Of a stretch of 40,140 nucleotides of DNA, positions 2,710-38,255 are shown one piece after another. The stretch spans positions 1 through 40,140 of the forward strand of contig DATEVB010000238.1 of assembly GCA_035282865.1 (NCBI GenBank), given 5' to 3'. The position numbers were made by a program, and so were the translations under genes. Numbering within the stretch: position 1 is the stretch's first letter; every line of letters begins with the position of its first letter. Below the pieces are notes generated by a model. The model saw only the letters and a program-made list of their open reading frames with translations. It was not told the origin of the DNA and did not search any database. This DNA comes from Acidimicrobiia bacterium. GTDB taxonomy: Bacteria; Actinomycetota; Acidimicrobiia; Spongiisociales; UBA4744.

Positions 2710-3057
2710 CTAGGCGGCTGTGAACACCATCCCGTAGTACTTGTCGTAGGCGCCCTCTCGCACCACCTTGACCTCACCCTGAACCGCCATCCCCATCTTG
2801 GGGTTGTCGACCTCGAGCTGCCCGGTGATCCGCAGGCCGTTCTCCAGTTCGACGATGCCCAGTCCCAACGTCGGCACCTCGAACTCGGCCGGCAGGTTGT
2901 AGACCTTGGTGAAGGTCAGCAGCTTGCCCTTCTTCGGAAGCGGCACGATATCGAACTCGAAAAAGCCGTTCTGCCGGCACTCCTTGCAGACCATCCGGAA
3001 GGGATAGTGCAGATGACCGCATTTGCGACACTTATAGGCGTAGATCTCGCGAGCCAT
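2710..3057 (-). CDS. DUF35 family Zn-ribbon / OB-fold protein (thiolase-associated)
   Basis: Zinc ribbon CRKCGHLHYPFRMVCKEC is followed by an OB-fold-like C-terminus. Its ATG shares one nt with the stop of the upstream thiolase-like gene (TGATG). Confidence 0.85.
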   Translation of the reverse strand: MAREIYAYKCRKCGHLHYPFRMVCKECRQNGFFEFDIVPLPKKGKLLTFTKVYNLPAEFEVPTLGLGIVELENGLRITGQLEVDNPKMGMAVQGEVKVVREGAYDKYYGMVFTAA

Positions 3058-4232
3058 CAGTCCTCCCTCACAAAGGTCAGGCAGACAACGTTGTTGCCAA
3101 AACCGCCGAAATTGCAGGTAAAGCCGACCCGGGCTCCGTTGACCTGGCGGTCGCCGGCCTCGCCTCTGAGCTGCGTCACGATTTCGTGAGCCTGGGCAAC
3201 TCCGGTGGCACCGACCGGATGACCCTTCCCCTTCAACCCACCGGAGGGATTGATCGGCAGGGACCCGTCCAACGCGGTTTGCCCTTTCTCGAGGGCAATG
3301 TGTCCTTCGCCCTTCGGGAAGAACCCAACCTCTTCACTCTCGACGATCTCGAGGATGGTGAAGGCATCGTGCAGCTCCGCTACGTCTACATCCTGCGGTG
3401 TCAACCCGGCCATCTCCAACGACTTGGCAGCCGCCCGACGCACGGCCAGCAGATCGGTCGGTTCTTCCCGCTCGTGTACGGCGTGGGTATCGGTCGCCTG
3501 ACCGATACCGGCCAGGCGTATGGGTGGCCGATCGATGGTCTTGGCGACGTCTTCGGATACCAGGATGACCGCCGCTCCCCCGTCCGACACCGGACAAGCG
3601 TCGAAGAACCGCAGCGGTTCCGCCACATACGGGTTGTTCGTCATCGCTTCCGGCGAATCGAGGATGCCCTCGAGCGTGATCGGCTGGTGCAGGTGGGCGA
3701 ACTCGTTCAGCATGGCGTTGTTCTGGTTCTTGACCGCCACCATGGCCAGATGCCGTTCGGTCACACCGTACTTCTCCATGTACAGGCGAGTGAACATCGC
3801 CGCGTGGGACGGCAAGGTGACCCCGTATATGTACTCGGCCAGTGGATGGGTGAGGGTGGCGATGAAGTCGGTCGCCTCGAGGTTGTTGACCTCCCGCATG
3901 CGTTCGGCACCGCTGACCAGCACCACGTCGTGCAGACCTGATGCCACTGCCGCGAACCCGGCCTTGATGGCCGAAGCTCCCGAAGCCGGACCATTCTCGA
4001 CAACCGCCGCTCCGGCCGGAGTGAGACTCAGGCTGTCAACCACCGCACTGGCCAGCGCCGTCTGGTGGTTGATCCTCGCACTGCCCATGTTGGCCACGTA
4101 CAGGTGATCCACATCGGTGATCCCGGCGTCGTTCAGCGCCATCATCGATGGGTAGGCAGCGATCTCGGAGACCGGATACTCGAGCCGCGTGAAGCTGGTG
4201 ATGCCTATCCCGACTACGTATACGTTACGCAT
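3057..4232 (-). CDS. thiolase-like protein (SCP2/archaeal-thiolase type), apparently lacking catalytic cysteines
   Basis: MRNVYVVGIGITSF..., DACPVSDGGAA, GGLKGKGHPVGATG and NFGGFG are typical of SCP2/archaeal thiolases. The start was refined to ATG 4232, downstream of a GAGGGGAGA SD. The nucleophile motif reads GPASGAS and the HDCF motif reads HDAF. Confidence 0.85.
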   Translation of the reverse strand: MRNVYVVGIGITSFTRLEYPVSEIAAYPSMMALNDAGITDVDHLYVANMGSARINHQTALASAVVDSLSLTPAGAAVVENGPASGASAIKAGFAAVASGLHDVVLVSGAERMREVNNLEATDFIATLTHPLAEYIYGVTLPSHAAMFTRLYMEKYGVTERHLAMVAVKNQNNAMLNEFAHLHQPITLEGILDSPEAMTNNPYVAEPLRFFDACPVSDGGAAVILVSEDVAKTIDRPPIRLAGIGQATDTHAVHEREEPTDLLAVRRAAAKSLEMAGLTPQDVDVAELHDAFTILEIVESEEVGFFPKGEGHIALEKGQTALDGSLPINPSGGLKGKGHPVGATGVAQAHEIVTQLRGEAGDRQVNGARVGFTCNFGGFGNNVVCLTFVRED

Positions 4233-4983
4233 GATCCGTCTCCCCTCGGAGAGCATTACGCTGCGCAATGAGGGCGGTCGCCGTCGGGTCGTACATGGAC
4301 CTGGTGGCCGCCAACAAGTCGGCCGGGGGCGTGGGTGGATCCGACGGTGGCAGGATCTTGGCTTCCGCTTTGGCAAGAAGCTCCGGCGGAACCGGGCGCC
4401 GCCCCACGACCAGGGTCGAGCGGGCTCGATCGAAGAGCTCCTTGGTCAGCGACCACGACGGCACGCCGCCCAGCTCATGGGGCGTTTCGAACCGTTTGTC
4501 GAGCTGATATTCGATCATCCAGCGACGGAATCCGATCGGTGATTCGGCCACGACCAACACCTCTTTGTGCCCGAGGATGTCGATGTGGTATTCCATCTTG
4601 GCGGCGAAAGCGTGCGCGCCCACCCGCAAGCCGCGCCGGAGGGCGATGGTGTGCAATGACATACCAAGATCCCCCGACACCTGCCGCCCGTTGACGACGG
4701 CCGCCAACTCTCCTTCGATCTGCGCGATCAGCACGTACTCGTCTTGAGCCCGGTACCGGTAGTGAGCCAGCAACTCGGAGTAGATGCGGGCGCATACGAC
4801 GTCGTAGTAGTCCCGCTCGACGTGGAGGAGCGGCTCGAGATACGGCAGGACGTCGGGAATCTCGTCCCGATCGATCTGCCGGATCACCATGTGCTCGCCG
4901 CTCGCCAGCGTCATGTACTTCGCTTCGAACGGCTTCAAAGGGTGGTCTTCTGGACGGAGAATCCTCTCCAGGTCAACAGCCAT
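4225..4983 (-). CDS. hypothetical protein (possible GNAT-like acyltransferase fold)
   Basis: It sits in-operon between the Mo-hydroxylase and thiolase-like genes. Start ATG 4983 has GGAG about 10 nt upstream. The segment LHTIALRRGLRVGAHAF loosely resembles the GNAT R/Q-x-x-G-x-G/A motif. I recognised no firm family. Confidence 0.6.
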   Translation of the reverse strand: MAVDLERILRPEDHPLKPFEAKYMTLASGEHMVIRQIDRDEIPDVLPYLEPLLHVERDYYDVVCARIYSELLAHYRYRAQDEYVLIAQIEGELAAVVNGRQVSGDLGMSLHTIALRRGLRVGAHAFAAKMEYHIDILGHKEVLVVAESPIGFRRWMIEYQLDKRFETPHELGGVPSWSLTKELFDRARSTLVVGRRPVPPELLAKAEAKILPPSDPPTPPADLLAATRSMYDPTATALIAQRNALRGETDHA

Positions 4984-4996
4984 TGCGGTACATCTC

Positions 4997-7378
4997 CTAC
5001 TCCTCACTCTTCTCTCTCAACACCGATAGCGCCACCTTCTCGGCGGTGATCGGCATCGATGTGATGCGGACACCCAGGGCGTCCTTGATGGCATTACCGA
5101 TCATCGGCGCCGCCGGGATCATGGTGTGTTCTCCCACTCCTCTGGCCCCGAAGGGCCCGTCCGGCTGGGCGATCTCGATGATGATCGGAATCGTCTCTTC
5201 TGGTATGTCGTGGGCCGTCGGGATCTTGTAGTCCGTGAAGTTGGGGTTCAGCAACCGCCCGTCCTCCCCGAACCGCATGTCCTCGTAGAGGACCGTGGCC
5301 AGACCCTGGACGATCCCGCCTGTGATCTGCCCTTCGATGAGACTGGGGTTGATGGCCTTGCCGACGTCGACAGCCAGCGCCACCTTCTTGACCTTCATCC
5401 GGCCGGTTTCCCGGTCGACCTCGAGCACCACCCCGGCTGCCCCCACCGTGTAGTGGACGTTGGGATGACCGCCCTGACTGGTCTCGGGGTCACTGCGGGT
5501 CGACGTGAACTCGGGCATGAACTTGCCGGAACCCACGATCGGTCCACCCTTGAAGGTGCCGTCCGTGTCTTCGAGCCCGTCGATGACAAAATCTTTCAAC
5601 GGCAGCTTGAAGTCGGGATCGGTGCTGGACCGGACGCTCTCATCCTCGAGATAGAGCGACTCCTCTTCGTAGCCGTGCACCCGATGCACAACGTCGAAGA
5701 TCTTCTCGCGGGCCTCGACCGCGGCTGCATGCACGGCATTACCGCAGCTCCACGTAACATGCGAGGCAACCGTCTGCCACTCATAGGGGTTGCGGTCGGT
5801 GTCGGGGGTCTCGACCCGGATCTTGGTAGGAGGCACCGCCAACACCTCCCCGGCAATCTGGGCCATGGCGGTCATATACCCCTGGCCGAGCTCCATGCCC
5901 GAGACGGAGATGTTCATGCTGCCGTCCTCATTGAACTTGAGGAATGACGCCGACGAGGCGTTGGGCGGCATGGCCGGCGCCTTCCAGAACACGGCGAAGC
6001 CCTTACCGATCGCTTTGTTGGGGTCGTCCGACGTCTCTTCCTTCCCCCACTCGATGGCATCTGCGGTTCGATCGATGGCCTCGATCAACCCGGATGGATT
6101 CATCTCCGCTCCGTAGGCGAGGATATCGCCCTCAACAATGGCGTTCTTGCGCCGGAACGCGACCGGATCCATCCCGATGGCCTCGGCGACCCGATCGACA
6201 TGTGATTCGAGCCCGAACACGAACTCCGAATACCCGAAGCCGCGGTACGGACCACCGGGCGGCAGGTTGGTGTAGATGCATTTGGAGTCGATCCATACGT
6301 TGGGGACACGATACGGGCCGGTGGCCGACAACCCGGCGGCGTTGACCACATTGGCTCCATATTCGACATAGGCGCCGGCGTCCCAGTTGAGGATGTGCCT
6401 GATGGCAGTGATCGTGCCGTCGTTCTTGACACCCATCTTCAGGTGAGCGACCAAGCCCTGCCGCTGGTAGGTGTTGTAGAACTCCTGCTCCCTGGTAAAC
6501 CGGATCTTGACGGGATGGCCCTTGGCCGCGGTAGCGAGGGCCGCGCCCATGATCTCCATCGAGACGCCGGCTTTCCCACCGAATCCTCCACCCACGTACG
6601 GGGTGATGACCCGGACGTCCTTGTGAGACAGGCCAAGCGGAGCGAGCGCTTCTGCAAAGAGATGCCGCTGCGTGTACGGTGACTGCGACGCCGACCACAT
6701 GGTCAGACGGCCGGATTGGTCGTAGAGCCCGACGATCACATGCGGTTCGATCGCACAGTGTGCATACCTGGGCACCCTGTACTCGCCCTCCAACACCAGG
6801 TCGGCTTGGGCGAAGCCCCGCTCGACGTCACCCTTGCGAGTCTTGCGCCAGTGGGCGATGTTCGTGTTTTCGTGCGGGTAGAACCACGGGACGTGCGCGT
6901 AGTCGCCCAGATCCGGATGGATCAGCTCGGAATCCGGTTTGAGGGCTTCGAGCGGATCAAAGATCGGGGGCAGCTCCTCATAGGTGACTTCGACGAGCTT
7001 GGCGGCCCGTTTGGCCACCTTGGGGTCGCGAGCGATGACCGCCGCCACTTGTTCACCGACGAAGCGGACCCGGTCCTGGGCAAAAACGTACCGGTCCTTC
7101 ATGTACAGCCCGAACTTGAACGGGAAATCCTTCCCGGTGACGACCTTGGTCACACCGGGGACGGCTGCCGCCGCCGAGGTGTCGATGGCCTTGATCAAAG
7201 CGTTGGCGAAGGGGCTTTCGACGATCTCCGCGTACAAGAGGTCGGGACCGAAATCGAGGTCGTCCACGTACCGGGCCGCACCCGAGACCTTCTCCAATCC
7301 GTCCACTCTCACGGCCGCCTTGCCAACGAAATCGAGGCCGCGGGTGCTTTCTCGCTCGAACGGTCTGAGCGTCGTCAT
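4997..7378 (-). CDS. xanthine dehydrogenase family molybdopterin-binding large subunit
   Basis: It contains VGGGFGGKAG, a C-terminal GARGVGE (catalytic Glu context) and aldehyde-oxidase/XDH a/b hammerhead-like N-terminal VDGLEKVSGAARYVDD. Start ATG 7378 overlaps the 2Fe-2S subunit stop (ATGA). Confidence 0.9.
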   Translation of the reverse strand: MTTLRPFERESTRGLDFVGKAAVRVDGLEKVSGAARYVDDLDFGPDLLYAEIVESPFANALIKAIDTSAAAAVPGVTKVVTGKDFPFKFGLYMKDRYVFAQDRVRFVGEQVAAVIARDPKVAKRAAKLVEVTYEELPPIFDPLEALKPDSELIHPDLGDYAHVPWFYPHENTNIAHWRKTRKGDVERGFAQADLVLEGEYRVPRYAHCAIEPHVIVGLYDQSGRLTMWSASQSPYTQRHLFAEALAPLGLSHKDVRVITPYVGGGFGGKAGVSMEIMGAALATAAKGHPVKIRFTREQEFYNTYQRQGLVAHLKMGVKNDGTITAIRHILNWDAGAYVEYGANVVNAAGLSATGPYRVPNVWIDSKCIYTNLPPGGPYRGFGYSEFVFGLESHVDRVAEAIGMDPVAFRRKNAIVEGDILAYGAEMNPSGLIEAIDRTADAIEWGKEETSDDPNKAIGKGFAVFWKAPAMPPNASSASFLKFNEDGSMNISVSGMELGQGYMTAMAQIAGEVLAVPPTKIRVETPDTDRNPYEWQTVASHVTWSCGNAVHAAAVEAREKIFDVVHRVHGYEEESLYLEDESVRSSTDPDFKLPLKDFVIDGLEDTDGTFKGGPIVGSGKFMPEFTSTRSDPETSQGGHPNVHYTVGAAGVVLEVDRETGRMKVKKVALAVDVGKAINPSLIEGQITGGIVQGLATVLYEDMRFGEDGRLLNPNFTDYKIPTAHDIPEETIPIIIEIAQPDGPFGARGVGEHTMIPAAPMIGNAIKDALGVRITSMPITAEKVALSVLREKSEE

Positions 7379-7851
7379 CCCGTTGCCTCCCCTCCGGCAT
7401 GGGCTGCCGCCAGGACGGCATCGATGATCGGATCGTATCCGGTACACCGGCAAAGGTTGCCGCCGATCGCCTCCTGGACGTCTTCTCGGGTTGGGCGGGG
7501 ATTCTCCTCCAGGAGTTCAGCCGCCGCCAGTACGATTCCGGGCGCACAAAAGCCGCACTGGAATGAGTTCATATCGACGAAGAACTGCTGGAGTTCGGTC
7601 AGCCCCTCGTCGTCCAGCCCTTCAATGGTGACCACCTCGTGGCCGTCGGCCTCCACCGAAAGGACCAGGCAGCTCCGCACCGTGTGGCCGTCGAGCAGCA
7701 CCGTGCAACTCCCGCAATCCCCCCGCTCGCATCCGATCTTCGGGCTCTTCACGCCGACCTTGGACCGGAGCGTTTCGAGGAGCACATCGTTGGGTTCGAC
7801 CGACAGCAACCACGGTTCGCCGTTGACCGTGACCGAGACATCCATTCGCAT
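7375..7851 (-). CDS. (2Fe-2S)-binding small subunit of the Mo hydroxylase
   Basis: Cysteine motifs CERGDCGSCTV, CGFCAPG and CRCTGY are typical of the XDH/CoxS family. Confidence 0.9.
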   Translation of the reverse strand: MRMDVSVTVNGEPWLLSVEPNDVLLETLRSKVGVKSPKIGCERGDCGSCTVLLDGHTVRSCLVLSVEADGHEVVTIEGLDDEGLTELQQFFVDMNSFQCGFCAPGIVLAAAELLEENPRPTREDVQEAIGGNLCRCTGYDPIIDAVLAAAHAGGEATG

Positions 7852-7859
7852 CCGTCCCC

Positions 7860-8750
7860 CTACATCAAGTTGGTTCCGTAGGAAGGCCCGTTGCCTTCCA
7901 GCCGTTCCACGGCAGCCTTCAAGCCCCGCTGCAACATCACTTCCGACATTCGAAGCCGGTATTCCTTCGATGCCCTGATATCGGTAATGGGCGAGATCTC
8001 CTCGGACACCAGTGCCATGGCCCGGGCGACCAGCACCGGATCGAGCGCCTTACCCTCCAGAAGCGCTTCGACGCGCCGCGCCCGCACGGGCGTGTCGGCC
8101 ACCGCCCCGAAGGCAACCCGGAACCGATGATCGGGTGGCGCCAGAATGGCAACGCTGGCCTGAGCGAGGTCCTCACCTTCGTAGCGACTGAGCCGGACAA
8201 AAGCGGCGCCGTGGCCGCCGGGCGGTACCGGCACCACCACTTTGGTCACAATCTCACCCCGACCGAGCGCCGTCATGCGTGGTCCGAGGAACCACTCGTC
8301 GATGGGAATCCGGCGGGTACCAGCAACTCCGACGGTATGGACCACCGCTCCGTACACGAGGAGTACCGGCCCGGCATCACACGAGGGCACGGCCGAACAG
8401 ATGTTCCCGACCATGGTGGCTCGATTGCGGATTCCGGTGGATGCCACAGTCGCCGCCATCTCGGAGATCAACGGCAGCCGGGCGGCGACCGGCCCCGAGT
8501 TGAGGAGATGAGTAAAGGTGACCAGCGAACCCATCGAAAGGGCGTCTCCTTCGTCGACGATCTCGCCGAGACCCTCGATCCGCTTGATATCGACGACCAG
8601 GTCGGGGGCGACCGCTTCGTCCCGCAACCAGGCAATGAGGTCGGTGCCACCAGCCAGCACCCGGACGTCACCGGCGTGCCCGATGAGGATCTCCAGTGCT
8701 TCGTCCAGCGTCTCCGGCCGCTCGTAATCGAACACCTGGGCGATCGTCAT
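7860..8750 (-). CDS. FAD-binding medium subunit of the Mo hydroxylase (CoxM/XdhB-like)
   Basis: It contains LAGGTDL and has a CO-dehydrogenase flavoprotein-like C-terminus. Start ATG 8750 is preceded by AAGGAGG. Confidence 0.9.
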   Translation of the reverse strand: MTIAQVFDYERPETLDEALEILIGHAGDVRVLAGGTDLIAWLRDEAVAPDLVVDIKRIEGLGEIVDEGDALSMGSLVTFTHLLNSGPVAARLPLISEMAATVASTGIRNRATMVGNICSAVPSCDAGPVLLVYGAVVHTVGVAGTRRIPIDEWFLGPRMTALGRGEIVTKVVVPVPPGGHGAAFVRLSRYEGEDLAQASVAILAPPDHRFRVAFGAVADTPVRARRVEALLEGKALDPVLVARAMALVSEEISPITDIRASKEYRLRMSEVMLQRGLKAAVERLEGNGPSYGTNLM

Positions 8751-8829
8751 ATCACCCTCCTTGTTGTCCGTTTTGTCAAACCTAGGCGATTCATGGGAGA
8801 CCGGGCGGCACACCGCCCGCCCGGGGCTG

Positions 8830-10242
8830 TCAAGAGTTCCCTACTCCCCCGGCCAGCGCTTTGACCGCGTCGATGAAACACTCCATCGGGGCCTCCACCA
8901 GGCCCGCCCCGACCATCCCTATGCCGGGTTCCTTTCCCGCCACGCCGGTGTTGATCTGAGGACGAACCCCGGTGCGTACCACCAACATCGCGTCGATCCC
9001 GGTCGGTGTGCCCCGGAACTCCAGGATGGGTATCTGGTATGAGGGATGCTCGGCCATAGTTATCTCGTACATGGCCTGGGTCCGTTGGACGGCGCCGGCC
9101 GCGGTACCACCGACGAATCCGACGATGGCCGGCGAGGCGGCCATGGCGAACCCACCCAGGCCGATCGTCTCGGTGATGGCCGAGTCTCCGATGTCCGGGT
9201 TGGCGTCGTCGGCGGTGAACGACCCGAGGAAGAGACCGTCCACGATCGGGGCCGGAGCCGTGAACCACCGGTCGCCGGTCCCCGACAGCCGGATGCCGAA
9301 CTCGGTTCCGTTGCGGGCCATGGTCGTGACCAGGCTGGAATTGGCCACCCCGGACGCCGCATCGACGACCAGCTTCCCGGCTGCCATCACCAGGTTGAGC
9401 ATGAAGTGGTCGTTCGAGTCGATGAAGGAGTACACGGCCGAACGGTCGGCAACCGGTGCGGCGTCGCTCTCCACCAGCGCGGCGCCGATGGTCCGGAGCA
9501 GCAGGGAGGTTCCCGCTCGATTGCGATTGTGCCCGTCGTCTCCCATCTGCAGAGCCTGGGCGATGAGAGAGCGCAGATCAACGGGGCCGGTCCGTCGGAG
9601 GGCGTCTCCCACCACCGGTCCCAGCACCCGTTCCATCCACCGGAGCCGCTCGATGACCTCAGGGGAATAGGCCCCGTACCGAAGGACTTTGCCGAGTCCT
9701 TCATTGAGGGTCGAGTACGCCACTCCCCCGCTTGCGGGGTCTTGTACGACCAGCACCGGCATGGAAGGGCTGATGACGCCGGCCATCGGGCCGACCGCTT
9801 GATGATGGTGGCAGGGAGAGAATTCAACCTCACCGGCTTGGAGCTTGGTTGCCGCCTCCGCGGCAGTCGCCGCGAAACCTTCGTAGAGCATGGCGCCCAT
9901 CAGGGCCCCCCGCATGGGTCCGCTGGCATCCGCCCAGGAAAGCGGCGGCCCGGCATGCAGGAACATGCGCTCGGTCAATCCGGGGATCGCCGTGCCGGCC
10001 GGGACCACATCCACCAGGTGGGGACGAACCTCGAGCAATCGGGCGACGGCGAGCTGGTTGGCTTCCGCCACCGCCGGCGTTGCCGCCAGCTTGGCGAGGG
10101 CTGCTTCGGTTCCGCCGGCCGGCGGGCTCCACTCGGTCCTCCGCACCTCGACGCTCTGCGCCTCGAGCGCACCGGCCAGCACTTCGACCCCGACCGTCAC
10201 GATCACCGGCTCGGTGTCGAGGAGGCGTTGGAGCTCACTCAT
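8830..10242 (-). CDS. DUF1116 family protein (YlbE/AllG-like)
   Basis: From memory, it aligns along most of its length to E. coli YlbE (LHAGPP, FSPCHHHQAVGPMAG, NEGLGKVLRYGAY, DSAITETIGLGG, INTGVAGKE.GIG). Start ATG 10242 overlaps the FdrA stop (ATGA). Confidence 0.85.
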   Translation of the reverse strand: MSELQRLLDTEPVIVTVGVEVLAGALEAQSVEVRRTEWSPPAGGTEAALAKLAATPAVAEANQLAVARLLEVRPHLVDVVPAGTAIPGLTERMFLHAGPPLSWADASGPMRGALMGAMLYEGFAATAAEAATKLQAGEVEFSPCHHHQAVGPMAGVISPSMPVLVVQDPASGGVAYSTLNEGLGKVLRYGAYSPEVIERLRWMERVLGPVVGDALRRTGPVDLRSLIAQALQMGDDGHNRNRAGTSLLLRTIGAALVESDAAPVADRSAVYSFIDSNDHFMLNLVMAAGKLVVDAASGVANSSLVTTMARNGTEFGIRLSGTGDRWFTAPAPIVDGLFLGSFTADDANPDIGDSAITETIGLGGFAMAASPAIVGFVGGTAAGAVQRTQAMYEITMAEHPSYQIPILEFRGTPTGIDAMLVVRTGVRPQINTGVAGKEPGIGMVGAGLVEAPMECFIDAVKALAGGVGNS

Positions 10243-11669
10243 AGGGCACCCCCTTCGACCAACGAGATTGCGTGGTTGGCTGCCGCAGCGTTGGACAGCC
10301 ACACAGATGCGCCGGCCTCGTTGAGGAGACGGGCCTGCCGATCACGATCCTGGGGATCACCCCTGGTGCCACACAGCGAAACCACCACCGCGGCTCCCTC
10401 GGCGATGGCCAGGGCGATCACCGGTGCCAGCTCAGAGGCCGGATCGGGATGGGCCCCGTGCCCGAGGACCACATCGAGCAGGACGACACCGATCTGCGGA
10501 TCATGAGCTGCAGCTTCCAGACGCTGCAACCTGAGCCGCTGGTCGATCATCGGATGGGCCCGGCCACGGGTGTATTCGTCCTCCCCGTAGTCGATGACCG
10601 TGTGACCGCCAGCCTGTTCGCGCTGAGCGATCGTCCCGAGGGAACCGGCCGCCAAGCGAGCAGCCTCGCTACTGAGGCTGCCACCCGAGAACAAGCCCCT
10701 GAGCATCCCGGGCCGATGGTCGTCCGTCGCGGCCGGCCAGGAGGCGTAGACGGGTGGCACCTTGCCCAGCAGATCCAGGGCTTGACGCACGGCTCCCTCC
10801 AGGGTGACTCCCTCTTCTCCGAGGAAGGCCAGCACGGTCGGTGTCGTGCATTCCTCGGTGGCCGCCCGCACCCGGGCGGCCACCTCGGGGGCAGGCGGTT
10901 TCGAGACCACAATCAGCACTTCGGTGCTGGGATCTGCATCGAGGGCGGCCAACCCACGCAACGTGGAAGAACCACCCACTTCGATCGACAGATCGTGGCT
11001 GCCGGTGCCCAACGCGTTACGAACTCCGACGCCGGCATCGTCAAGCAAGGAACAGAGTTGCTGGATACCGGTGCCGGCTGCACCAACGATGCCAACGGGA
11101 CCCGGTTGCACCACGTTGGCAAAGCCCAGGCCGACTCCGTTGACGATGGCCGTGCCGCAATCGGGTCCCATGACGAGCAGACCCAACCGGCCGGCGGCCT
11201 GTTTGAGCATCACCTCCTGAGCGCTCGGCACGTTGTCGCTGAACACCATCACGTCGAGCCCGTGCTGCAACGCGTCCATTGCCTCGATGAACGCATACTC
11301 GCCGGGAACCGATATCAACGCCAGAGTGGCTCCGGCGGCCGCCGATCCGACCACATGAGCAGGTGGAGCCGCCAGCATCCCGGAGTCGCGGGTGGTCCTG
11401 GCCGCCAGGGCCGCCTCGAGGACCTGTCGAGCATGATCGACCGCTTGCTCGTCGGCGGCACGCACCGCGACGATGAGGTCGTTGGGTCCGGCCTCGCCGA
11501 TCGACTCCACCTCGAATCCCATGCCGGCCAGCAACTCACGATTGAGGTCGGTCGCCATCGCCACCAAGGCCTCTTCTACCCCTTGGGCTTGCTGCAGCGA
11601 CCGGCTCACCTGCATCAGCCGCACGGAATCGTGGTAGGTGCCGCGGCGAACCTCAACGCTATCGATCAT
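10239..11669 (-). CDS. fdrA: FdrA family protein (succinyl-CoA-synthetase-alpha-like; AllF-like)
   Basis: MIDSVEVRRGTYHDSVRLMQVSR, LALISVPGEYA, VMVFSDNV, LLVMGPDCGT, VSKPP and GRAHPMID mirror E. coli FdrA. The ATG overlaps the upstream DUF2877 stop (ATGA). Confidence 0.85.
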   Translation of the reverse strand: MIDSVEVRRGTYHDSVRLMQVSRSLQQAQGVEEALVAMATDLNRELLAGMGFEVESIGEAGPNDLIVAVRAADEQAVDHARQVLEAALAARTTRDSGMLAAPPAHVVGSAAAGATLALISVPGEYAFIEAMDALQHGLDVMVFSDNVPSAQEVMLKQAAGRLGLLVMGPDCGTAIVNGVGLGFANVVQPGPVGIVGAAGTGIQQLCSLLDDAGVGVRNALGTGSHDLSIEVGGSSTLRGLAALDADPSTEVLIVVSKPPAPEVAARVRAATEECTTPTVLAFLGEEGVTLEGAVRQALDLLGKVPPVYASWPAATDDHRPGMLRGLFSGGSLSSEAARLAAGSLGTIAQREQAGGHTVIDYGEDEYTRGRAHPMIDQRLRLQRLEAAAHDPQIGVVLLDVVLGHGAHPDPASELAPVIALAIAEGAAVVVSLCGTRGDPQDRDRQARLLNEAGASVWLSNAAAANHAISLVEGGAL

Positions 11670-12505
11670 GCATTGCTCCCTTCAACAAGGAAATCGGCAG
11701 CCAACAGAATCCCGCAGGCCGTTGCTACCCCGGAGGTGTTCCCCATCATGTACAGACCGCCGACAGCCTCCTCCAGATCGCCTCTCCCGGTCAGGGCCTG
11801 GAGGAACGCCGCCACCGGATCGGCCACCTCGCCCGCCACGGCATGTCGCAGCAGCGCCGCCGACAAGGCAGTCGTGCGAAAAGGCGCCTCCATCAGGACG
11901 ATCGAAGCGACCTCGGCCACCATCCCGCCTGCCCCCACAGCACCTACCGCCGGACCCAGCAACCGCAAGCCGGACAGCATTCCGACCAGCACATCGTCCC
12001 CTTCCGGAGTGAGCCCTGCACCCCTCCCGAGCAGGGCACACATGGCGTGACGGACGGCGGCGGGATCGTTCCTCTTCAGCGACTGACCCAGGCCTCCATC
12101 GTCGGGAAATACGAATCGCGGCCGGGCATCCGCACATCTAGCGGCCACATCCTTCCGGGACACCGATCCCAGCGTTGGTCGCGGATCCCACCAGCGGACG
12201 ACCCTGACCTTTACGCTCCCTACCTCCAACCCGCCGTCTCCGACCACACAGCGGTCTCCGGATTGCGATCGGGCCGCATCGGCCGGCTCTGCCACGGTGA
12301 CGCCGTTGGGCAAACGCACCGCCTCACGCCCGGAGAGCACCAGCACATGCCCGCCCGCCTGCAGCCAAGCGGCGTTGCCCGAAGCACCCAGCAAGACCCC
12401 GGGTTTGCGGGGACCCTCCAGGAGATAACGCACCCCGCGACTAGCCGCCGCCGCCAACGACGTCGGGGCGGTCGCAATGCCCGTCGGGTGCGGCTTGGCC
12501 GGCAT
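11666..12505 (-). CDS. DUF2877 family protein (YlbF/AllH-like)
   Basis: The GAGLTPEGDDVLVGMLSGL motif is typical of DUF2877. The length (279 aa) is similar to YlbF. The start was set to ATG 12505, 10 nt after the amidohydrolase stop. Confidence 0.7.
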   Translation of the reverse strand: MPAKPHPTGIATAPTSLAAAASRGVRYLLEGPRKPGVLLGASGNAAWLQAGGHVLVLSGREAVRLPNGVTVAEPADAARSQSGDRCVVGDGGLEVGSVKVRVVRWWDPRPTLGSVSRKDVAARCADARPRFVFPDDGGLGQSLKRNDPAAVRHAMCALLGRGAGLTPEGDDVLVGMLSGLRLLGPAVGAVGAGGMVAEVASIVLMEAPFRTTALSAALLRHAVAGEVADPVAAFLQALTGRGDLEEAVGGLYMMGNTSGVATACGILLAADFLVEGSNA

Positions 12506-12515
12506 CCGTCCAGTC

Positions 12516-13616
12516 TCAGCCGAGGTCGACGATGGCTGCCACCGGGCCCCCTCCGGAAGGTCCCTGATGGATGGCCGCCACCGAGACGAACACGGCCGCA
12601 TCGTCGACGGCCGCGGCAACCACTCCCCCGACGGCACCCTTGATATGCCGATGGTGGTGCACATCGGAATCGTCGAGCGCTACCTGCCGGCGGCCGCGCA
12701 GTTTGGCGGTCGGATCCGCCTCACATTTCACGAACACGTTGACCAACCGGCCATCGAGGTCTGCCGGCCTCGCTCGATCGGGGAGGTCGAGGCCCGCCGA
12801 GCGGATCGCCTCGTAGACCCCTTCAAAATCGAGCGCATCCTTCATGACGCTGTGACCTATCCGGTACCGGCCTCCCGCGCCGCGTACGTTCCCGACGACA
12901 ACCGTTTGCGCCTGGTTCAGTTCGACACCCGACGAGCAGGAGGCCACCGAGGAATAGAGGGAGAGATCGTGGCCGATTTGATCTTCCGTCGGAATGATGT
13001 CGATTTCACCCAGGGCATAGGCGATGCCGAGCCCGGAAGTCCCGTTGGAGATGTTCATCGACTCGAGCGGCTCCTCGGTCACTACGGAATGGCCCCGCGA
13101 TTTGGCATCGTTGATAGTGTCCATCGTCAGCAGCGGCGTTTTGGTCTGCACATAGTGGACATCCGCCGGATCTTCGATGCCGGCTTCTCTCATGGCCCGC
13201 TTGACTCCCTCTGCCACCTTTTCGACCATGGCGGGCCGGCCGATGTCTTCAGGAAGAATCACCTCACTCATGGCGTAGCCAACCGCCAACCGTGGCTCAT
13301 TAGAGGGGTTGGCGTCGTCGGCCACCCGGGCAAACACCGTTGCATGTGGGGTGAGGATGCCGTCGGTTCCGCCCGACCAAACCATCGGAATCTCCTTGAC
13401 TTCCTCGAGGGGCCGGGTCCCCAGCTCCATGAGGACGTCACGGAAGGCGCGATCGGCGAGAATCCTGGTGAAGTCGTTGACGCCGCCGTTCCCTTCGGTC
13501 TTCCCGATAACGGCGATCACCTCATCGGCGCCGAACGCCCCCTGATCGATCAGCGACTTCATCCCCGACGCATCGGTGACACTCTCCAGGACGACCTTGC
13601 GTACTTCGATGGCCAT
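12516..13616 (-). CDS. ring-opening amidohydrolase of the barbiturase / cyanuric acid amidohydrolase (AtzD/TrzD) family
   Basis: 366 aa. It contains MAIEVRKV...[54 protein letters not shown] and [17 protein letters not shown]. The threefold Ser/Lys repeat pattern is typical of the family. ATG 13616 has GGGAGAG upstream. Confidence 0.85.
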
Positions 13617-13667
13617 TACCGCTCTCCCTGCGACGAGACGGCCGCTACCCGGCGACCGTCGGGACGG

Positions 13668-13694
13668 ATGTCGTATCCACCAATACTCCGACAT
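13668..13694. promoter_or_regulatory. inverted repeat ATGTCG-N15-CGACAT (inner GTAT/ATAC) in the divergent control region
   Basis: Read directly from the sequence. It lies between the divergent starts at 13616 (-) and 13770 (+). This is a candidate operator only. Confidence 0.3.
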
Positions 13695-13769
13695 GGACCC
13701 TGACGACACTAGGGACCAACGACCCCTCAACGCTGCGGTTGGACCGGTCTGTGTGCCAGGCTGAAGGAC

Positions 13770-14207
13770 ATGGACACCTTTCTTCGAGCAGCCATCGACG
13801 AGGCAACGGCCGGATTGTCGGAGGGAGGCATCCCCATCGGCTCGGTGTTGGTGATCGACGGCGAGATAAAGGGGAGAGGTCACAACCGCCGGGTGCAACG
13901 CGGCAGCGCCATCCTCCACGCCGAGATGGACTGCCTCGAGAACGCCGGGCGGTTGGGGGCGGCCGACTACCGGCGGGCCGTGCTCTACTCCACGCTGTCC
14001 CCCTGTGACATGTGCAGCGGTGCCATCCTGCTCTACCGGATCCCGCGGGTGGTTGTGGCAGAAAACCGAACCTTCCGGGGTCCCGAAGAACACCTCCGCT
14101 CCCGGGGGGTTGAGATCGAGATCGTCGATGACCCGATCTGCATCAAGCTGATGGAGGACTTCATCGCCGCCCGACCCGAGCTGTGGGACGAGGATATCGG
14201 CGAGTAG
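13770..14207 (+). CDS. cytosine deaminase, yeast Fcy1-type (CMP/dCMP zinc-deaminase fold)
   Basis: HAEMDCLEN and [12 protein letters not shown] zinc motifs are present. GGIPIGSVL...GRGHNRR and the C-terminal [10 protein letters not shown] closely parallel S. cerevisiae Fcy1 as I recall it (PQDWFEDIGE). Confidence 0.85.
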
Positions 14208-32582: not shown

Positions 32583-33764
32583 CTATTCGCCCGGTTTTGC
32601 CTCACGCACCCAACCGATCAGCAGGGCCAGGGCCACAAGGTTGGCGGCCGCGGCCACCAACGTGTTGGCGGTCAGCCCGGACCGCTCGTAGAGGAAAGGC
32701 CCCACCGACGCCCCGACCGCCCGCCCGAGCCCCATCCCAACCGCGAGCAGCGCCAGGAAGCGGGTGCGGGCCGCCGGCCGAAACTCGGAGGCAAGAGGAA
32801 AGGTCGAGACGATCGTGAATTCAAAACCGGCCAGCGCCAGGGCCATACTCGCCAGGCCGATCACGAGGTTGGCATTCGTGGCGGCTAGGAGCAGGTAGGC
32901 AACGGCCGAGATGACGAGGCCGATCGCCACCGATCGTCGCTTGCCGATCCGATCGGTCCATATCAGCGTTGAGCCCTCGCCTACCAGTTCGGACACGGCA
33001 ACGAGCACCCCGGCCGCCCCCAGCGCCAGGAGCGACAACCCGAACCCATCTTCCAACCAGGCGCCGAACACAACGAACATGACCTCGGAAGCGCCCGAAT
33101 AGAGCCCGACGCCGACCAGGAGAGCTACGGCACTGCGGTCCAAGGCCAGTTTGGGGCGGGCCGCGTCGGTGGACCGGCGGTCCGACTCGATGACCCACCG
33201 CATAGCCACGAGCGAAAGAACACTGAGCGTAGCGATCCCCCAGAAGGGAGCGGTCCATCCGAATCGTGCGATGAGCCACCCGGCCGCGGGCGCCCCGACC
33301 AGCAATGAACTCGCCCAGGTCAGCTCAATGACCCCCAGGTAACGAGCGCGCATCCGGTACGGGGTTCGATCGGAGAGATAGGCCTGGGCGGCCACGTCAA
33401 ACACCGGTTTCCCGAGGCCCAGGAAGATGAACCCGATGAGAGCCCCGGCGAACACACCGGTGGCGGCCGTTACGGCCGCCCCGGTGGCGAACATCGTCAA
33501 ACCGGCGGCAATCAGGCGGTGCCGGCGTTCACTACGTCCGAGAAACCGGACGGCCGCCGGAGTGGCCAACCCGGTGACCCATCTGGCCGAGACCAGCAAA
33601 CCGGCCTGGGTGAATGGGATTCCGAGACCTCTGGCGATGACCGGTAGGAAGGGATAGACGAATCGATATCCGGTATTCAGGACCAGCCGTGCTCCGGCGA
33701 GGAAAACGAGCGCACCGGTCAGCGGTGCCTGGGTCTTGTCTGGTGTCGGCGCTTGATGGTCCAT
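32583..33764 (-). CDS. MFS transporter
   Basis: There are about 12 hydrophobic helices. An MFS loop motif-like segment LGRSERRHRLIAAG is present. The start was refined to ATG 33764, behind GAGGA. Confidence 0.85.
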   Translation of the reverse strand: MDHQAPTPDKTQAPLTGALVFLAGARLVLNTGYRFVYPFLPVIARGLGIPFTQAGLLVSARWVTGLATPAAVRFLGRSERRHRLIAAGLTMFATGAAVTAATGVFAGALIGFIFLGLGKPVFDVAAQAYLSDRTPYRMRARYLGVIELTWASSLLVGAPAAGWLIARFGWTAPFWGIATLSVLSLVAMRWVIESDRRSTDAARPKLALDRSAVALLVGVGLYSGASEVMFVVFGAWLEDGFGLSLLALGAAGVLVAVSELVGEGSTLIWTDRIGKRRSVAIGLVISAVAYLLLAATNANLVIGLASMALALAGFEFTIVSTFPLASEFRPAARTRFLALLAVGMGLGRAVGASVGPFLYERSGLTANTLVAAAANLVALALLIGWVREAKPGE

Positions 33765-33952
33765 CACGTGTCCTCAACGGTGCAGTCTGGCAGCCGGGTG
33801 GTAGGGGGGTGGATGGGAACCTTCCGCGGCCCGGCGCCCCAGAGGCTCACCCCTCGTGAATATGTGAAGAAGACGGACTGGACCACCATAGGGGCGGACC
33901 TCCACAACCGGTGCGGAGGGGCGTAGGATCAACCTCCGAGAGGAGGCTATTC

Positions 33953-35177: not shown

Positions 35178-36140
35178 ATGAGGTCGGGATCGACCCGAGA
35201 GGTGAGCCCGGTGTCCACCCAATACGAGCCCGCCTATCTGGCGGTGCAACGCGGCAGCGGTTTCGACGCCCGAATCAGCCGGGCGATGGCGGAGCTGGCG
35301 AACTGCCGAGCCTGTCCCCGGAACTGTGGTGTCGATCGATCGAGGGCTGATCTACCCCTGTGCCGGATTGGACGGCTCGCCCGGGTGGCGGCCGCTTTCC
35401 CCCATTTCGGAGAGGAGGATTGCCTGCGCGGGACGAGGGGTTCCGGGACGATCTTCTTCTCCTCTTGCAATCTGCGGTGCGTGTTTTGCCAGAATTGGGA
35501 CATCTCTTCTTCCCCAACCGGTCGGGAAGTGGACCCATCGGAACTTGCCGACCTAATGCTCGACCTTCAAGACGCCGGATGCCACAACATCAACCTGGTG
35601 ACACCCGAGCACGTCGCCTCGCATATCGTCGAGGCATTGGCGGTAGCCATCCCGGGAGGATTGCGCATCCCCCTGGTCTACAACACCAGCGCCTATGACG
35701 GGCTCCCCTCGCTCCACTTGATGGATGGTCTGATCGACATCTACATGCCCGACTTCAAGTTCTGGAGGCCGGAAACCGCCCGCCGCCTGGCACGGGCATC
35801 GGACTACCCGGAGGTGGCCCGAACAGCCATCGCCGAGATGCATCGCCAGGTCGGAGATCTGCAACTGGGGCCGAGTGGCGTAGCGCGACGCGGCCTGCTC
35901 GTACGACATTTGGTGATGCCGGGCCAGCTGACCGAAGCGGCCGCCATCTTCCGCTGGCTGGCGAACGAGATCTCACCGGACACTTACCTGAACATCATGG
36001 GCCAATACCGGCCAGACCATCGGGTACCCGGCAACTCTCGCTACGGGGACATCGATCGCCGTGTGCGGCAGGAGGAGGTCGATGCCGCCATGGCGGCTGC
36101 CCGGCGGGCCGGATTGTGGCGACTGGACCGGCGGTCATGA
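35178..36140 (+). CDS. radical SAM protein, PflX-like (COG1313-type activase-like)
   Basis: The N-terminus contains CRACPRNCGVDR...LCRIG. The radical SAM cluster motif is CNLRCVFCQNWD. An alternative start is GTG 35211. Confidence 0.8.
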   Translation: MRSGSTREVSPVSTQYEPAYLAVQRGSGFDARISRAMAELANCRACPRNCGVDRSRADLPLCRIGRLARVAAAFPHFGEEDCLRGTRGSGTIFFSSCNLRCVFCQNWDISSSPTGREVDPSELADLMLDLQDAGCHNINLVTPEHVASHIVEALAVAIPGGLRIPLVYNTSAYDGLPSLHLMDGLIDIYMPDFKFWRPETARRLARASDYPEVARTAIAEMHRQVGDLQLGPSGVARRGLLVRHLVMPGQLTEAAAIFRWLANEISPDTYLNIMGQYRPDHRVPGNSRYGDIDRRVRQEEVDAAMAAARRAGLWRLDRRS

Positions 36141-37261
36141 CCATAGACCCGGGATCTATTGGACCGCCCGGGGCCGTCGTCCCGACCCGGCATTGGCACT
36201 CGCTCGCCGATGGGAGGGTGCAGTGCGATTTGTGCCCGAGGTATTGCAAGCTTCGTGAGGGCCAACGGGGACTCTGCTTCGTGCGGGCCAGACTCGAAGA
36301 CCGGATCGTGCTCACCACGTACGGTCGGTCGTCGGGATTCTGTGTCGATCCGATCGAGAAGAAGCCGCTCAACCATTTCCTCCCCGGAACTCCGGTGTTG
36401 TCGTTTGGCACGGCCGGATGCAATCTCGCCTGTCGCTTCTGCCAGAACTGGGACATCTCCAAGGCCCGCCACTTCGACGCGCTCACTGATCAGGCCGCGC
36501 CCGCGCAGATCGCCCGGACGGCCGTCGAGCTCGGCTGCCGCAGCGTCGCCTTCACCTACAACGATCCCGTCATCTTCCACGAATACGCCGTCGACGTCGC
36601 CCGGACCTGCCACGCAGTCGATGTGCAGACGGTGGCGGTAACCGCCGGATACGTGTGTCCGGAGCCGCGGGCCGAGTTCTACGCCAACATCGATGCAGCC
36701 AACGTTGACCTGAAGGGTTTCACGGAGCAGTTCTACCGACGGGTGTGCGCCGGCCACTTGCAGCCGGTCTTGGAGACGCTGCAGTACCTCAACGACGAAA
36801 CCGACGTGTGGCTGGAGATCACCACCCTGCTCATTCCCGACCTCAACGACTCCGATCACGAGATCGACCGGATGACCTCGTGGATCATGGACCATCTCGG
36901 CCCCGACGTTCCGCTGCATTTCACCGCCTTTCACCCCGATTTCAAGATGCTCGACCGACCGCCTACTCCCCCGGCAACGCTCACCCGGGCCCGCCGGATC
37001 GGCATCGCCAACGGCCTGCACTACGTGTATACGGGCAATGTGGTCGATCCGGATGGCCAGGCAACCCGATGCCACACGTGCGGGAAGGTCGTTATTGGTC
37101 GCGACTGGCACAGGCTCGGTCGGTGGGGGCTCGATGACCAAGGCAGGTGCACCGCGTGCGGGACGCCCTGTGCCGGTGTCTTCGACCCGAACGGGCCCGG
37201 ATCGTGGGGTGGGCAACGGCTTCCGGTCCGGCTGGGAGGCTTCAGCGGGCCGGCCCGATGA
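36137..37261 (+). CDS. amrS: AmmeMemoRadiSam system radical SAM enzyme
   Basis: VQCDLCPRYCKLREGQRGLCFVR, FCVDPIEKKPLNHF, CNLACRFCQNWDIS and the C-terminal CHTCG...CTACG are present. The ATG overlaps the upstream stop (ATGA). Confidence 0.85.
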   Translation: MTIDPGSIGPPGAVVPTRHWHSLADGRVQCDLCPRYCKLREGQRGLCFVRARLEDRIVLTTYGRSSGFCVDPIEKKPLNHFLPGTPVLSFGTAGCNLACRFCQNWDISKARHFDALTDQAAPAQIARTAVELGCRSVAFTYNDPVIFHEYAVDVARTCHAVDVQTVAVTAGYVCPEPRAEFYANIDAANVDLKGFTEQFYRRVCAGHLQPVLETLQYLNDETDVWLEITTLLIPDLNDSDHEIDRMTSWIMDHLGPDVPLHFTAFHPDFKMLDRPPTPPATLTRARRIGIANGLHYVYTGNVVDPDGQATRCHTCGKVVIGRDWHRLGRWGLDDQGRCTACGTPCAGVFDPNGPGSWGGQRLPVRLGGFSGPAR

Positions 37262-38057
37262 CGAAGGAACCGTAGCCGACCACGGAGTTGCGATCCCCCG
37301 CTGTGTCACCGGATGACCGCAGATCGAGCAGGGAACACTCCCAACCCCGCTCCCGGGCCACCAACAGCGCGGCCTGAACGCCGACCAGACCGCAGGCGTC
37401 GCCCCGGGCGAGATCACGGGGGCGCCGCGCCACGATCGCCCGGGCCGTTCGCGTGTCGCGTACCCGGGCCGAGTCGTAGTCGAGGTAATGAGAGAGGTCT
37501 GAGCTGATCACGGCAACGCCGCCCTCGTTCTCGATCAGGTCTCCAAGCACCGCTGCCACGGTTTCCGGTTCGACGATGCCGGTCAACAAGGAGAGCACGG
37601 TGAGCTGATCGCGCACCACCTGCAGGAAGGGAAGCTGCACCTCAACGCTGTGTTCCCGACTATGAGCCGCCTGGTTGGGAGCGACGGCGGGGTGGGCCTC
37701 AGCCGTCGCCGTCAGCTCGGTATCCGCGCTGACGATCCCCAGTGGGGTGGCCAGACCTTCAACACCCGGCGTCGCCATACCGGGGAAAGCAACGAAATGC
37801 GAAGGGCCGATCACGACCATCCCCGGCGATCGAGCCACGCCCTGCAGGAGCCGGTAGGCGGTGGCTGCCACCGGTCCGGAGTACACGTAGCCGGCGTGCG
37901 GCACGATGAGGAACCGTACCTCAACCTCTGTTTCGGGAACGGCGCCCGCCGCCAGCATGTCATCTACTGAGCCGCGCAGCTCCTCGGGATCAGACGGGTA
38001 AAAGGAACCGGCCACGGCCGGCGACCGCACCGATCCACGGGAATGGTCCGGTTTCAT
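37242..38057 (-). CDS. amrB: AmmeMemoRadiSam system protein B (Memo-like)
   Basis: PAVAGSFYP, VPHAGYVYSG and VISSDLSHY are present. The start was refined to ATG 38057. The 3' end overlaps amrS by 20 nt (convergent). Confidence 0.85.
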   Translation of the reverse strand: MKPDHSRGSVRSPAVAGSFYPSDPEELRGSVDDMLAAGAVPETEVEVRFLIVPHAGYVYSGPVAATAYRLLQGVARSPGMVVIGPSHFVAFPGMATPGVEGLATPLGIVSADTELTATAEAHPAVAPNQAAHSREHSVEVQLPFLQVVRDQLTVLSLLTGIVEPETVAAVLGDLIENEGGVAVISSDLSHYLDYDSARVRDTRTARAIVARRPRDLARGDACGLVGVQAALLVARERGWECSLLDLRSSGDTAGDRNSVVGYGSFVIGPAR

Positions 38058-38255
38058 GTGCGAAGAGTGCCCTATCTGCCGACGGACCCAGGGAGTCTCC
38101 AAGCGTGCCGCTCTTACTGTCGCGCTGCCCGACGGTCGGGGCATAGAGCCCATCGACCCGTCGCGCCTCCACCATCCTCGCCAGCGATGCACCTAGTGTT
38201 GCCCTCAGCAGAATGCAGGTCGGTGCACTCGCTACCGCGATGGGAGAGTGGATCG

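Follow-up and report, generated by a model that had tools for sequence, protein, structure and literature searches.

A predicted barbiturate-route pyrimidine catabolic operon with an AllFGH-type enzyme in an Acidimicrobiia bacterium

Introduction

Among the pathways of pyrimidine degradation, none is less understood than the barbiturate route. It has been described in Rhodococcus erythropolis as an oxidative pathway comprising uracil/thymine dehydrogenase, barbiturase (EC 3.5.2.1) and ureidomalonase and, to our knowledge, barbiturase is the only enzyme of this route with a well-defined gene and structure. Here we analyse a 40,140-nucleotide stretch of contig DATEVB010000238.1 (assembly GCA_035282865.1) from an Acidimicrobiia bacterium, hereafter the window, which carries between positions 2710 and 14207 an operon of ten minus-strand genes (g1 to g10, in order of transcription) and a divergent deaminase gene. 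We consider with good confidence that this island is a barbiturate-route pyrimidine catabolic operon, and we propose, as the somewhat more probable ending of the pathway, that an AllFGH-type enzyme replaces the hydrolytic ureidomalonase.

Other described systems resemble parts of this locus. In Escherichia coli, the carbamoyltransferase AllFGH (FdrA/YlbE/YlbF; EC 2.1.3.5) takes part in anaerobic allantoin degradation, where it converts oxalurate (N-carbamoyl-oxamate) and phosphate to carbamoyl phosphate and oxamate, and it is accompanied by the carbamate kinase YbcF/AllK. Ureidomalonate, i.e., N-carbamoyl-malonamate, is oxalurate with one additional CH2. The cyanuric acid hydrolases AtzD and TrzD share the fold family PF09663 with barbiturase. 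Finally, thiolase-like proteins paired with DUF35 proteins are found in the archaeal acetoacetyl-CoA thiolase/HMG-CoA synthase/DUF35 complex and in the pairs BbsAB, PhlBC and Ltp2-ChsH2.

The locus shares with R. erythropolis a barbiturase orthologue, a co-transcribed molybdenum hydroxylase (Mo-hydroxylase) and the predicted intermediates barbiturate and ureidomalonate. It differs in that no amidase-signature or nitrilase-type candidate for ureidomalonase, and no urease, was found when the ten operon genes and the larger flanking open reading frames (ORFs) were scanned with Pfam. Instead, an AllFGH-type enzyme follows barbiturase, with carbamoyl phosphate and malonamate as predicted products rather than urea and malonate, and the locus has in addition the trio g8-g10 and a cytosine deaminase feeding into the pathway.

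Materials and methods

The coordinates of the island were translated and re-checked, and the encoded proteins were compared with Pfam, NCBIfam and PDB entries. Species-representative genomes were scanned with a barbiturase alignment, resulting in 80 loci, and synteny was assessed by tblastn in flanks of 10 kb. Loci and related contigs are cited by their L numbers.

Results

Barbiturase and the AllFGH-type enzyme

Translation gave eleven intact ORFs, i.e., the plus-strand deaminase and ten minus-strand genes running from 13616 to 2710, as the original prediction had described them. The first gene of the operon, g1 (12516-13616, minus strand), encodes 366 aa of the AtzD/TrzD/barbiturase family of ring-opening amidohydrolases, and matches PF09663 at 2.3e-142 over residues 4-364, i.e., at full length, and TIGR02714 at 504 bits (cut-off 153). 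Its match to the crystallised Rhodococcus barbiturase 5HWE scored 519 bits at approximately 69% identity, whereas the solved cyanuric acid hydrolases scored 315, 310, 309, 259 and 229 bits. In the alignment, SNG, SCSSG and KCEA are common to g1 and 5HWE, and the hydrolases 5T13 and 6BUM have SRG, STSAG and KAEA at those positions; some of these barbiturase-type residues presumably set specificity. Both scores and residues group g1 with barbiturase rather than with AtzD/TrzD, as had been predicted, and on its sequence g1 is a barbiturase orthologue with a predicted activity of barbiturate to ureidomalonate.

Cyanuric acid hydrolase was the other function considered for g1. The two families have the fold in common, the match is full-length and g1 passes the NCBIfam equivalog cut-off for 'cyanuric acid amidohydrolase' (461 bits vs 360). 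Despite this, the assignment was rejected on the PDB scores (519 vs at most 315 bits) and the barbiturase-type residues; biuret and allophanate genes, moreover, are not found downstream. Many database homologues of g1 (P0006, P0010, P0012 and others) carry the label 'cyanuric acid amidohydrolase'. Such labels on barbiturases are likely a systematic mis-annotation, which probably arises because barbiturase-type proteins pass the NCBIfam equivalog model.

The three genes that follow g1 encode relatives of all three AllFGH subunits in adjacent, overlapping frames. The product of g2 (11666-12505, minus strand; 279 aa) is an AllH-like subunit (DUF2877; PF11392 AllH, 1e-21) with 36% identity to E. 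coli YlbF/AllH in its C-terminal half. That of g3 (10239-11669, minus strand; 476 aa, PF00549 and PF02629) is an AllF/FdrA-like subunit of succinyl-CoA-synthetase-alpha-like type, which shares 41% identity with E. coli FdrA/AllF across 474 aa, also matches the FdrA structure 3DMY, and scores 427 bits against the NCBIfam FdrA model, just under its cut-off of 433. The product of g4 (8830-10242, minus strand; 470 aa) is an AllG-like subunit (DUF1116; PF06545 AllG, 3e-96) with 47% identity to E. coli YlbE/AllG. In Pfam, the families of AllG and AllH bear the name 'oxamate carbamoyltransferase subunit', and the RefSeq name of E. coli FdrA is 'putative oxamate carbamoyltransferase'. The original prediction had counted six genes of the operon as having no role in the pathway, with g4 known to it only as DUF1116. 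This no longer applies to g2-g4, the AllH, AllF and AllG homologues; the remaining g8-g10 have no textbook role and are discussed below as candidates for processing of the C3 fragment.

The predicted chemistry is that of the E. coli enzyme, in which phosphate cleaves an N-acyl-urea into carbamoyl phosphate and an amide; the substrate here would be one CH2 longer. The arrangement differs: the order is allH-allF-allG here and allF-allG-allH-carbamate kinase in E. coli, no carbamate kinase lies in this operon, and the neighbours are barbiturase and Mo-hydroxylase genes, not allantoin genes. Pfam scans of the window found none of the allantoin/oxalurate context genes allB, allC, allD and allE. Neighbour-joining grouped the AllG proteins linked to barbiturase, g4 among them, into a single clade (mutual identity of at least 52%), outside which lay E. 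coli AllG (41-48%), AllG linked to a putative cyclase (see below) and the second AllG copy of L085. Given the lack of allantoin/oxalurate context genes and the position of AllG outside the E. coli branch, we file g2-g4 as a probable paralogous variant with another predicted substrate, not as oxamate carbamoyltransferase proper. On balance, we favour the view that g2-g4 supply the ureidomalonase step in a phosphorolytic form. The original prediction that the window contains no urease, amidase-signature ureidomalonase or carbamate kinase held in Pfam scans and tblastn searches, and the absence of urease and amidase-signature genes is what a phosphorolytic AllFGH-type step would lead us to expect.

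Conservation of the operon and of its links to barbiturase

The ten genes recur in unchanged order in another 13 Acidimicrobiia loci, counted at species level (L001, L003, L004, L006-L009, L014, L018, L019, L051 and L054, plus L002, which ends at a contig edge), and the expectation that gene order would be conserved in relatives was thus borne out by the neighbourhood comparison. The ten-gene operon occupies different chromosomal sites, being flanked by genes for a TGS-domain GTPase and BipA in the window and lying between flagellar export genes in L089, which indicates that it moves as a unit.

Beyond this order, it is g2-g4 that show the tightest linkage to barbiturase in different genomes. 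Within the flanks compared, AllF/G-like genes occur in 25 of the 80 barbiturase loci and carbamate kinase in 41, mostly directly upstream of barbiturase; one or the other is present in 62, and several of the remaining loci are on truncated contigs. The barbiturase-linked carbamate kinase scored 341 bits to arcC and passed the NF009007 cut-off. A minimal operon of only four genes, barbiturase-allH-allF-allG, is found in L081. As in E. coli, carbamate kinase stands beside the allFGH-like genes in some relatives (L023, L066 and L085). The cluster of L023 (Dormibacteraeota) contains allG-allF-allH, a xanthine/uracil-family permease (PF00860), a g8-like gene, barbiturase, Mo-hydroxylase and carbamate kinase, and that of L085 a PF00860 permease, a g8-like gene, barbiturase, allF, allG, Mo-hydroxylase and carbamate kinase, together with an amidase-signature gene. 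In L066, barbiturase is accompanied by the row carbamate kinase-allH-allF-allG-Mo-hydroxylase, and L050 has a g8-like gene, a carboxyltransferase, barbiturase, allHFG, Mo-hydroxylase and an NCS1 cytosine/uracil-type permease.

A fused carboxyltransferase was found in ten barbiturase loci, with the row carboxyltransferase-carbamate kinase-barbiturase in L073 and L059, and in L084 a carboxyltransferase is accompanied by a biotin carrier and OAD_beta. The cluster L059:16-18600 from Streptomyces sp. MMS24-I31 reads PucR regulator, hydantoinase A, hydantoinase B, CoA-transferase III, carboxyltransferase, carbamate kinase, barbiturase, CN-hydrolase, CoxG, Mo-hydroxylase and permease, with no AllFGH within 10 kb. 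This cultured Streptomyces is a tractable organism with a different solution for the later steps of the pathway; related clusters are also carried by cultured Geodermatophilus aquaeductus DSM 46834 (L077) and by Actinomadura or Spirillospora strains. The clusters with carboxyltransferase or CoA-transferase III suggest that the malonyl fragment is decarboxylated as a CoA thioester.

In L020-L065 (Actinomadura, Spirillospora and Streptosporangiaceae), the genes bordering the carbamate kinase-barbiturase pair include a conserved class I/II aminotransferase, present in 32 loci, and an SseB-family protein, present in 34, e.g., at L037:6013-7176 and 11177-11872.

Mo-hydroxylase and cytosine deaminase

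Genes g5-g7 encode a xanthine-oxidase-family Mo-hydroxylase, consisting of an FAD-binding medium subunit (g5; 7860-8750, minus strand; 296 aa, PF00941 and PF03450), a [2Fe-2S] small subunit (g6; 7375-7851, minus strand; 158 aa, PF01799 and PF00111) and a molybdopterin large subunit (g7; 4997-7378, minus strand; 793 aa, PF01315, PF02738 and PF20256). All three fell under every NCBIfam equivalog cut-off, with xanthine dehydrogenase subunits as the best NCBIfam matches, and the best PDB match of g7 was 4-hydroxybenzoyl-CoA reductase alpha at 332 bits. Close to its C-terminus g7 has a GVGE motif, the Glu of which we take to be the catalytic Glu of the Mo-hydroxylase family. NCBIfam, Pfam and PDB contain no sequence-defined model of uracil dehydrogenase. 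From its gene context, we consider g5-g7 a candidate uracil/thymine dehydrogenase (EC 1.17.99.4).

The divergent gene (13770-14207, plus strand) encodes a 145-aa Fcy1-type, i.e., yeast-type, cytosine deaminase (PF00383). It matches the yeast cytosine deaminase structures 1YSD and 1UAQ at 155 bits over residues 7-145, i.e., end to end and including the C-terminal helix, with WxEDIGE closing the alignment, compared with 75 bits to the best TadA. The motifs HAE and PCDMC and the C-terminal WDEDIGE are present, so the likeness to yeast cytosine deaminase that had been noted from the HAE/PCxxC motifs and C-terminus is upheld by the full-length match as well. The gene was seen only in the three closest loci (L001-L003), and as it is confined to these relatives the deaminase is a recent addition to the island.

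The g8-g10 trio

The last three genes combine an unannotated protein, a thiolase-like protein and a DUF35 protein. g8 (4225-4983, minus strand; 252 aa) belongs to a small unannotated family and gave no Pfam (to E = 10), NCBIfam or PDB phmmer sequence match. Its AlphaFold2 model (predicted local distance difference test 74, predicted template modelling score 0.75) resembles a GNAT-like fold, with many GNAT acetyltransferases matched by Foldseek at E = 1e-5 and probability 1.0, at a template modelling (TM) score of only 0.4-0.6 and a root-mean-square deviation of 4-6 Å. The conserved segment RRGLRVGA is a poor fit to the acyl-CoA-binding Q/RxxGxG/A, and g8 has invariant His, Glu, Asp and Ser residues. 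Nearly all of its 2822 homologues are unnamed or hypothetical, and a profile search gave just 233 clusters at 50% identity in 1.84 billion representatives. A sister subfamily of 241 aa is approximately 34% identical to g8 and approximately 80% conserved internally across phyla; its genes adjoin barbiturase in L023, L050 and L085.

In Anaerolineae-type and other contigs, a g8-like gene adjoins not barbiturase but a PF04199 'putative cyclase' (L084:9020-10726, L087:9084-10726 and L088:182-1855). These clusters also contain Mo-hydroxylase and AllF/AllG, or carboxyltransferase with biotin carrier and OAD_beta, two OTCase genes and carbamate kinase. The PF04199 cyclase may be a non-homologous ring-opening enzyme, or may mark a sister pathway for another N-heterocycle.

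The product of g9 (3057-4232, minus strand; 391 aa, Thiolase_N and Thiolase_C_1) is of the archaeal/SCP-x type and is closest to the archaeal-type thiolases 7YVY, 4YZO and 6ESQ. It retains the HDAF and GHP motifs; however, in the alignment it has ENGPASG where thiolase 7YVY has EAACASG, so that Pro replaces the acyl-carrying Cys of the CxS motif in the N-terminal domain, and all 13 orthologues share this Pro. Since the nucleophilic Cys is replaced in all orthologues, g9 is predicted to be a thiolase-like protein and not a thiolase, and its sequence excludes covalent thiolase chemistry. The last gene, g10 (2710-3057, minus strand; 115 aa, PF12172 and PF01796), encodes a DUF35 protein with a Zn ribbon (CxxC...CxxC) and OB fold, and such proteins are the usual partner or scaffold of thiolase-like proteins of this kind. 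The trio thereby resembles the described thiolase/DUF35 systems in having a thiolase-like protein, a DUF35 protein and a coupled third partner, and differs from them in the Pro of g9 and in a third partner that is GNAT-like rather than HMG-CoA synthase or KAS III-like.

Analogies for the trio are the Cys-less decarboxylases of ketosynthase type and DUF35-scaffolded channelling complexes. The genes for CoA activation and decarboxylation that recur in other barbiturase clusters lead us, through guilt-by-association, to put g8-g10 at the C3 stage. A role in processing the malonyl-derived C3 fragment, CoA-dependent and probably decarboxylating, is a tentative suggestion that may well prove wrong.

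Discussion

The proposed pathway

The deaminase, judged by homology, would convert cytosine to uracil, and the g5-g7 enzyme, to which we assign a substrate from gene context, would hydroxylate uracil (possibly thymine) at C6 to give barbiturate. By homology again, g1 would open the barbiturate ring to give ureidomalonate. The original prediction had proposed the route from cytosine through uracil and barbiturate to ureidomalonate, which is still the best reading of the deaminase, Mo-hydroxylase and g1, but it was incomplete in that the proposed phosphorolytic AllHFG step was missed. At that step, g2-g4, with a substrate again suggested by context, would convert ureidomalonate and phosphate to carbamoyl phosphate and malonamate instead of hydrolysing ureidomalonate to urea and malonate. 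Carbamoyl phosphate could then yield ATP, NH3 and CO2 via a carbamate kinase encoded outside the window or, alternatively, enter arginine/pyrimidine synthesis, and the translationally coupled g8, g9 and g10 might act as a complex that takes the C3 fragment towards acetyl-CoA. A phosphorolytic ureidomalonase appears to be the best explanation of the ties of AllFGH and carbamate kinase to barbiturase across loci, the barbiturase-linked AllG clade and the minimal operon.

The most complete version of the proposal has g5-g7 as the long-sought uracil/thymine dehydrogenase, the barbiturase-specific AllFGH clade as a 'malonamate carbamoyltransferase' that saves the ureido group as carbamoyl phosphate for ATP formation by carbamate kinase, and g8-g10, with g8 as a new protein family, as a channelling complex from malonamate to acetyl-CoA, CO2 and NH3, in a pathway widespread among Acidimicrobiia, other Actinomycetota, Dormibacteraeota and Chloroflexota. 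Taken as a whole it is speculative, and we would sooner expect some part of it to fail than all of it to hold. We know of no previous description of a full barbiturate pathway with a phosphorolytic ending.

The operon and its relatives provide gene candidates for uracil/thymine dehydrogenase and for the fates of ureidomalonate and the C3 fragment. Judging from them, the ureido group would in many environmental Actinomycetota be salvaged as carbamoyl phosphate, worth one ATP or available for arginine/pyrimidine synthesis, and not discarded as urea. The recently named AllFGH carbamoyltransferase family would thereby be extended to a second substrate class.

Points against the proposal and alternative explanations

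Several observations weigh against this proposal. The pathway steps in this organism are predicted from homology and gene context, and this applies particularly to the Mo-hydroxylase, which has no characterised close relative and owes its assigned substrate to context. Carbamate kinase and AllFGH occur together in only four loci, so the two links to barbiturase come mostly from different genomes, and most Actinomycetes with carbamate kinase beside barbiturase have no AllFGH within 10 kb. Conversely, tblastn with an actinomycete query found no carbamate kinase in the 40-kb window, and none lies within 10 kb of the Acidimicrobiia ten-gene operons. The textbook Rhodococcus pathway is reportedly hydrolytic, giving urea and malonate, and g8, or an enzyme encoded elsewhere, could act as a hydrolytic ureidomalonase. 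The fold suggested for g8 comes from a medium-confidence model and lacks the GNAT sequence signature, and its invariant His, Glu and Asp could equally fit a hydrolase. The decarboxylase role suggested for g9 and g10 is drawn by analogy.

These points can be assembled into the textbook alternative, in which urea and malonate are formed by an unassigned protein, e.g., g8, or by an enzyme encoded elsewhere, and AllFGH serves another co-regulated ureide, e.g., oxalurate from purines. The only biochemically described pathway known to us, that of Rhodococcus, is hydrolytic, the invariant His, Glu, Asp and Ser of g8 are compatible with a hydrolase, and the L085 and L059 clusters contain an amidase-signature gene and a CN_hydrolase gene, respectively. 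However, urea would require urease or urea carboxylase/allophanate hydrolase, for which the window and the related operons yielded no gene, and the 41 loci with carbamate kinase beside barbiturase would have no use for it in a urea-forming route. The minimal barbiturase-allHFG operon and the barbiturase-specific AllG clade argue that AllFGH acts on the barbiturase product, and allantoin/oxalurate genes are not present in the window; we consider the hydrolytic alternative unlikely. A cluster for purines or another N-heterocycle would instead combine a xanthine-type dehydrogenase, g1 acting on another cyclic ureide and AllFGH acting on oxalurate. The xanthine dehydrogenase matches of g5-g7 (all below cut-off), the PF00860 permeases of related clusters, which are of the xanthine/uracil family, and the PF04199 cyclase that takes the place of barbiturase in sister clusters, whereby the module can evidently serve other rings, are all in keeping with such a function. 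It is harder to reconcile with the 69% identity of g1 to a characterised barbiturase, which it also follows at the residues that differ in the hydrolases, with a control region shared with cytosine deaminase, or with an AllG outside the E. coli clade, and Pfam scans of the operon and the larger window ORFs found no uricase, allantoinase, allantoicase or ureidoglycolate dehydrogenase. We therefore hold a purine cluster to be decidedly improbable.

A role in s-triazine (cyanuric acid) degradation, with g1 as AtzD/TrzD, seems to us very improbable indeed. The naming of many g1 homologues and the equivalog score of 461 against 360 bits speak for it; against this stand the 519 bits to barbiturase compared with at most 315 to the solved cyanuric acid hydrolases and the SNG of g1, as in barbiturase, in place of the hydrolase SRG. 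The same scans of the operon and larger window ORFs yielded no biuret, allophanate or triazine hydrolase, and neither a Mo-hydroxylase nor a cytosine deaminase has a place in triazine breakdown.

Operon layout, control region and neighbouring genes

All gene junctions listed in the original prediction proved exact when the coordinates were re-checked. In transcription order, they are a 10-nt gap between g1 and g2 (12506-12515), ATGA overlaps at g2/g3 (11666-11669) and g3/g4 (10239-10242), a 79-nt gap between g4 and g5 (8751-8829), an 8-nt gap between g5 and g6 (7852-7859), an ATGA overlap at g6/g7 (7375-7378), a 13-nt gap between g7 and g8 (4984-4996), an 8-nt overlap at g8/g9 (4225-4232) and a 1-nt overlap at 3057, where the g10 start lies on the g9 stop. 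For g2, the mechanical ORF list gives a start at 12664, inside g1, and the start at 12505 implied by the original prediction results in 279 aa, matching the called L089 orthologue in length.

The 79-nt gap is the sole sizeable gap inside the operon, and it divides a half of higher GC content from one of lower GC content: GC is approximately 0.66-0.675 over 7860-13616 (barbiturase-allHFG) and approximately 0.62 over 2710-7851 (the Mo-hydroxylase and g8-g10 half). The GC difference, the gap and the occurrence of the first half on its own as the four-gene operon of L081 suggest a possible fusion of two modules as the origin of the ten-gene operon.

The operon and the deaminase are separated by a divergent region of 153 nt (13617-13769), in agreement with the earlier description. 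It contains a conserved 16-nt box, GGGNCNTTNGTCCCTA (13710-13725, minus strand), an imperfect palindrome that overlaps a TAnnnT -10-like hexamer and lies approximately 95 nt upstream of g1 and approximately 45 nt upstream of the deaminase. A single copy of the box, 95-120 nt ahead of the barbiturase start codon, is present in the window and in L001 (9887-9902), L002 (5597-5612), L004 (804-819), L005 (9877-9892), L006 (9888-9903), L015 (9884-9899) and L017 (9886-9901), where it is retained despite unrelated upstream genes. Because it is an imperfect palindrome overlapping the TAnnnT hexamer, we regard the box as a candidate promoter/operator common to the operon and the deaminase. It is followed by a leader of approximately 95 nt with an inverted repeat (13657-13673/13689-13705). 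A sigma-70 consensus scan found no promoter, terminator-like matches were no more numerous than expected from shuffling, and the window contained no tRNA and no Rfam family at the gathering threshold.

The island holds no regulator gene, as had been predicted. The accompanying statement that the window lacks a transporter is true of the island and its direct neighbourhood, but not of the whole window, in which an MFS gene is found at 32583-33767. The island is flanked by the gene for the TGS-domain GTPase (1530-2555) on one side and by BipA from approximately 14.2 kb on the other. Further away and unrelated to the operon, between 35178 and 38192, two radical SAM genes (35178-36140 and 36116-37261) lie beside a gene for a Memo-like protein (37242-38192, minus strand), a set reminiscent of an AmmeMemoRadiSam-type system.

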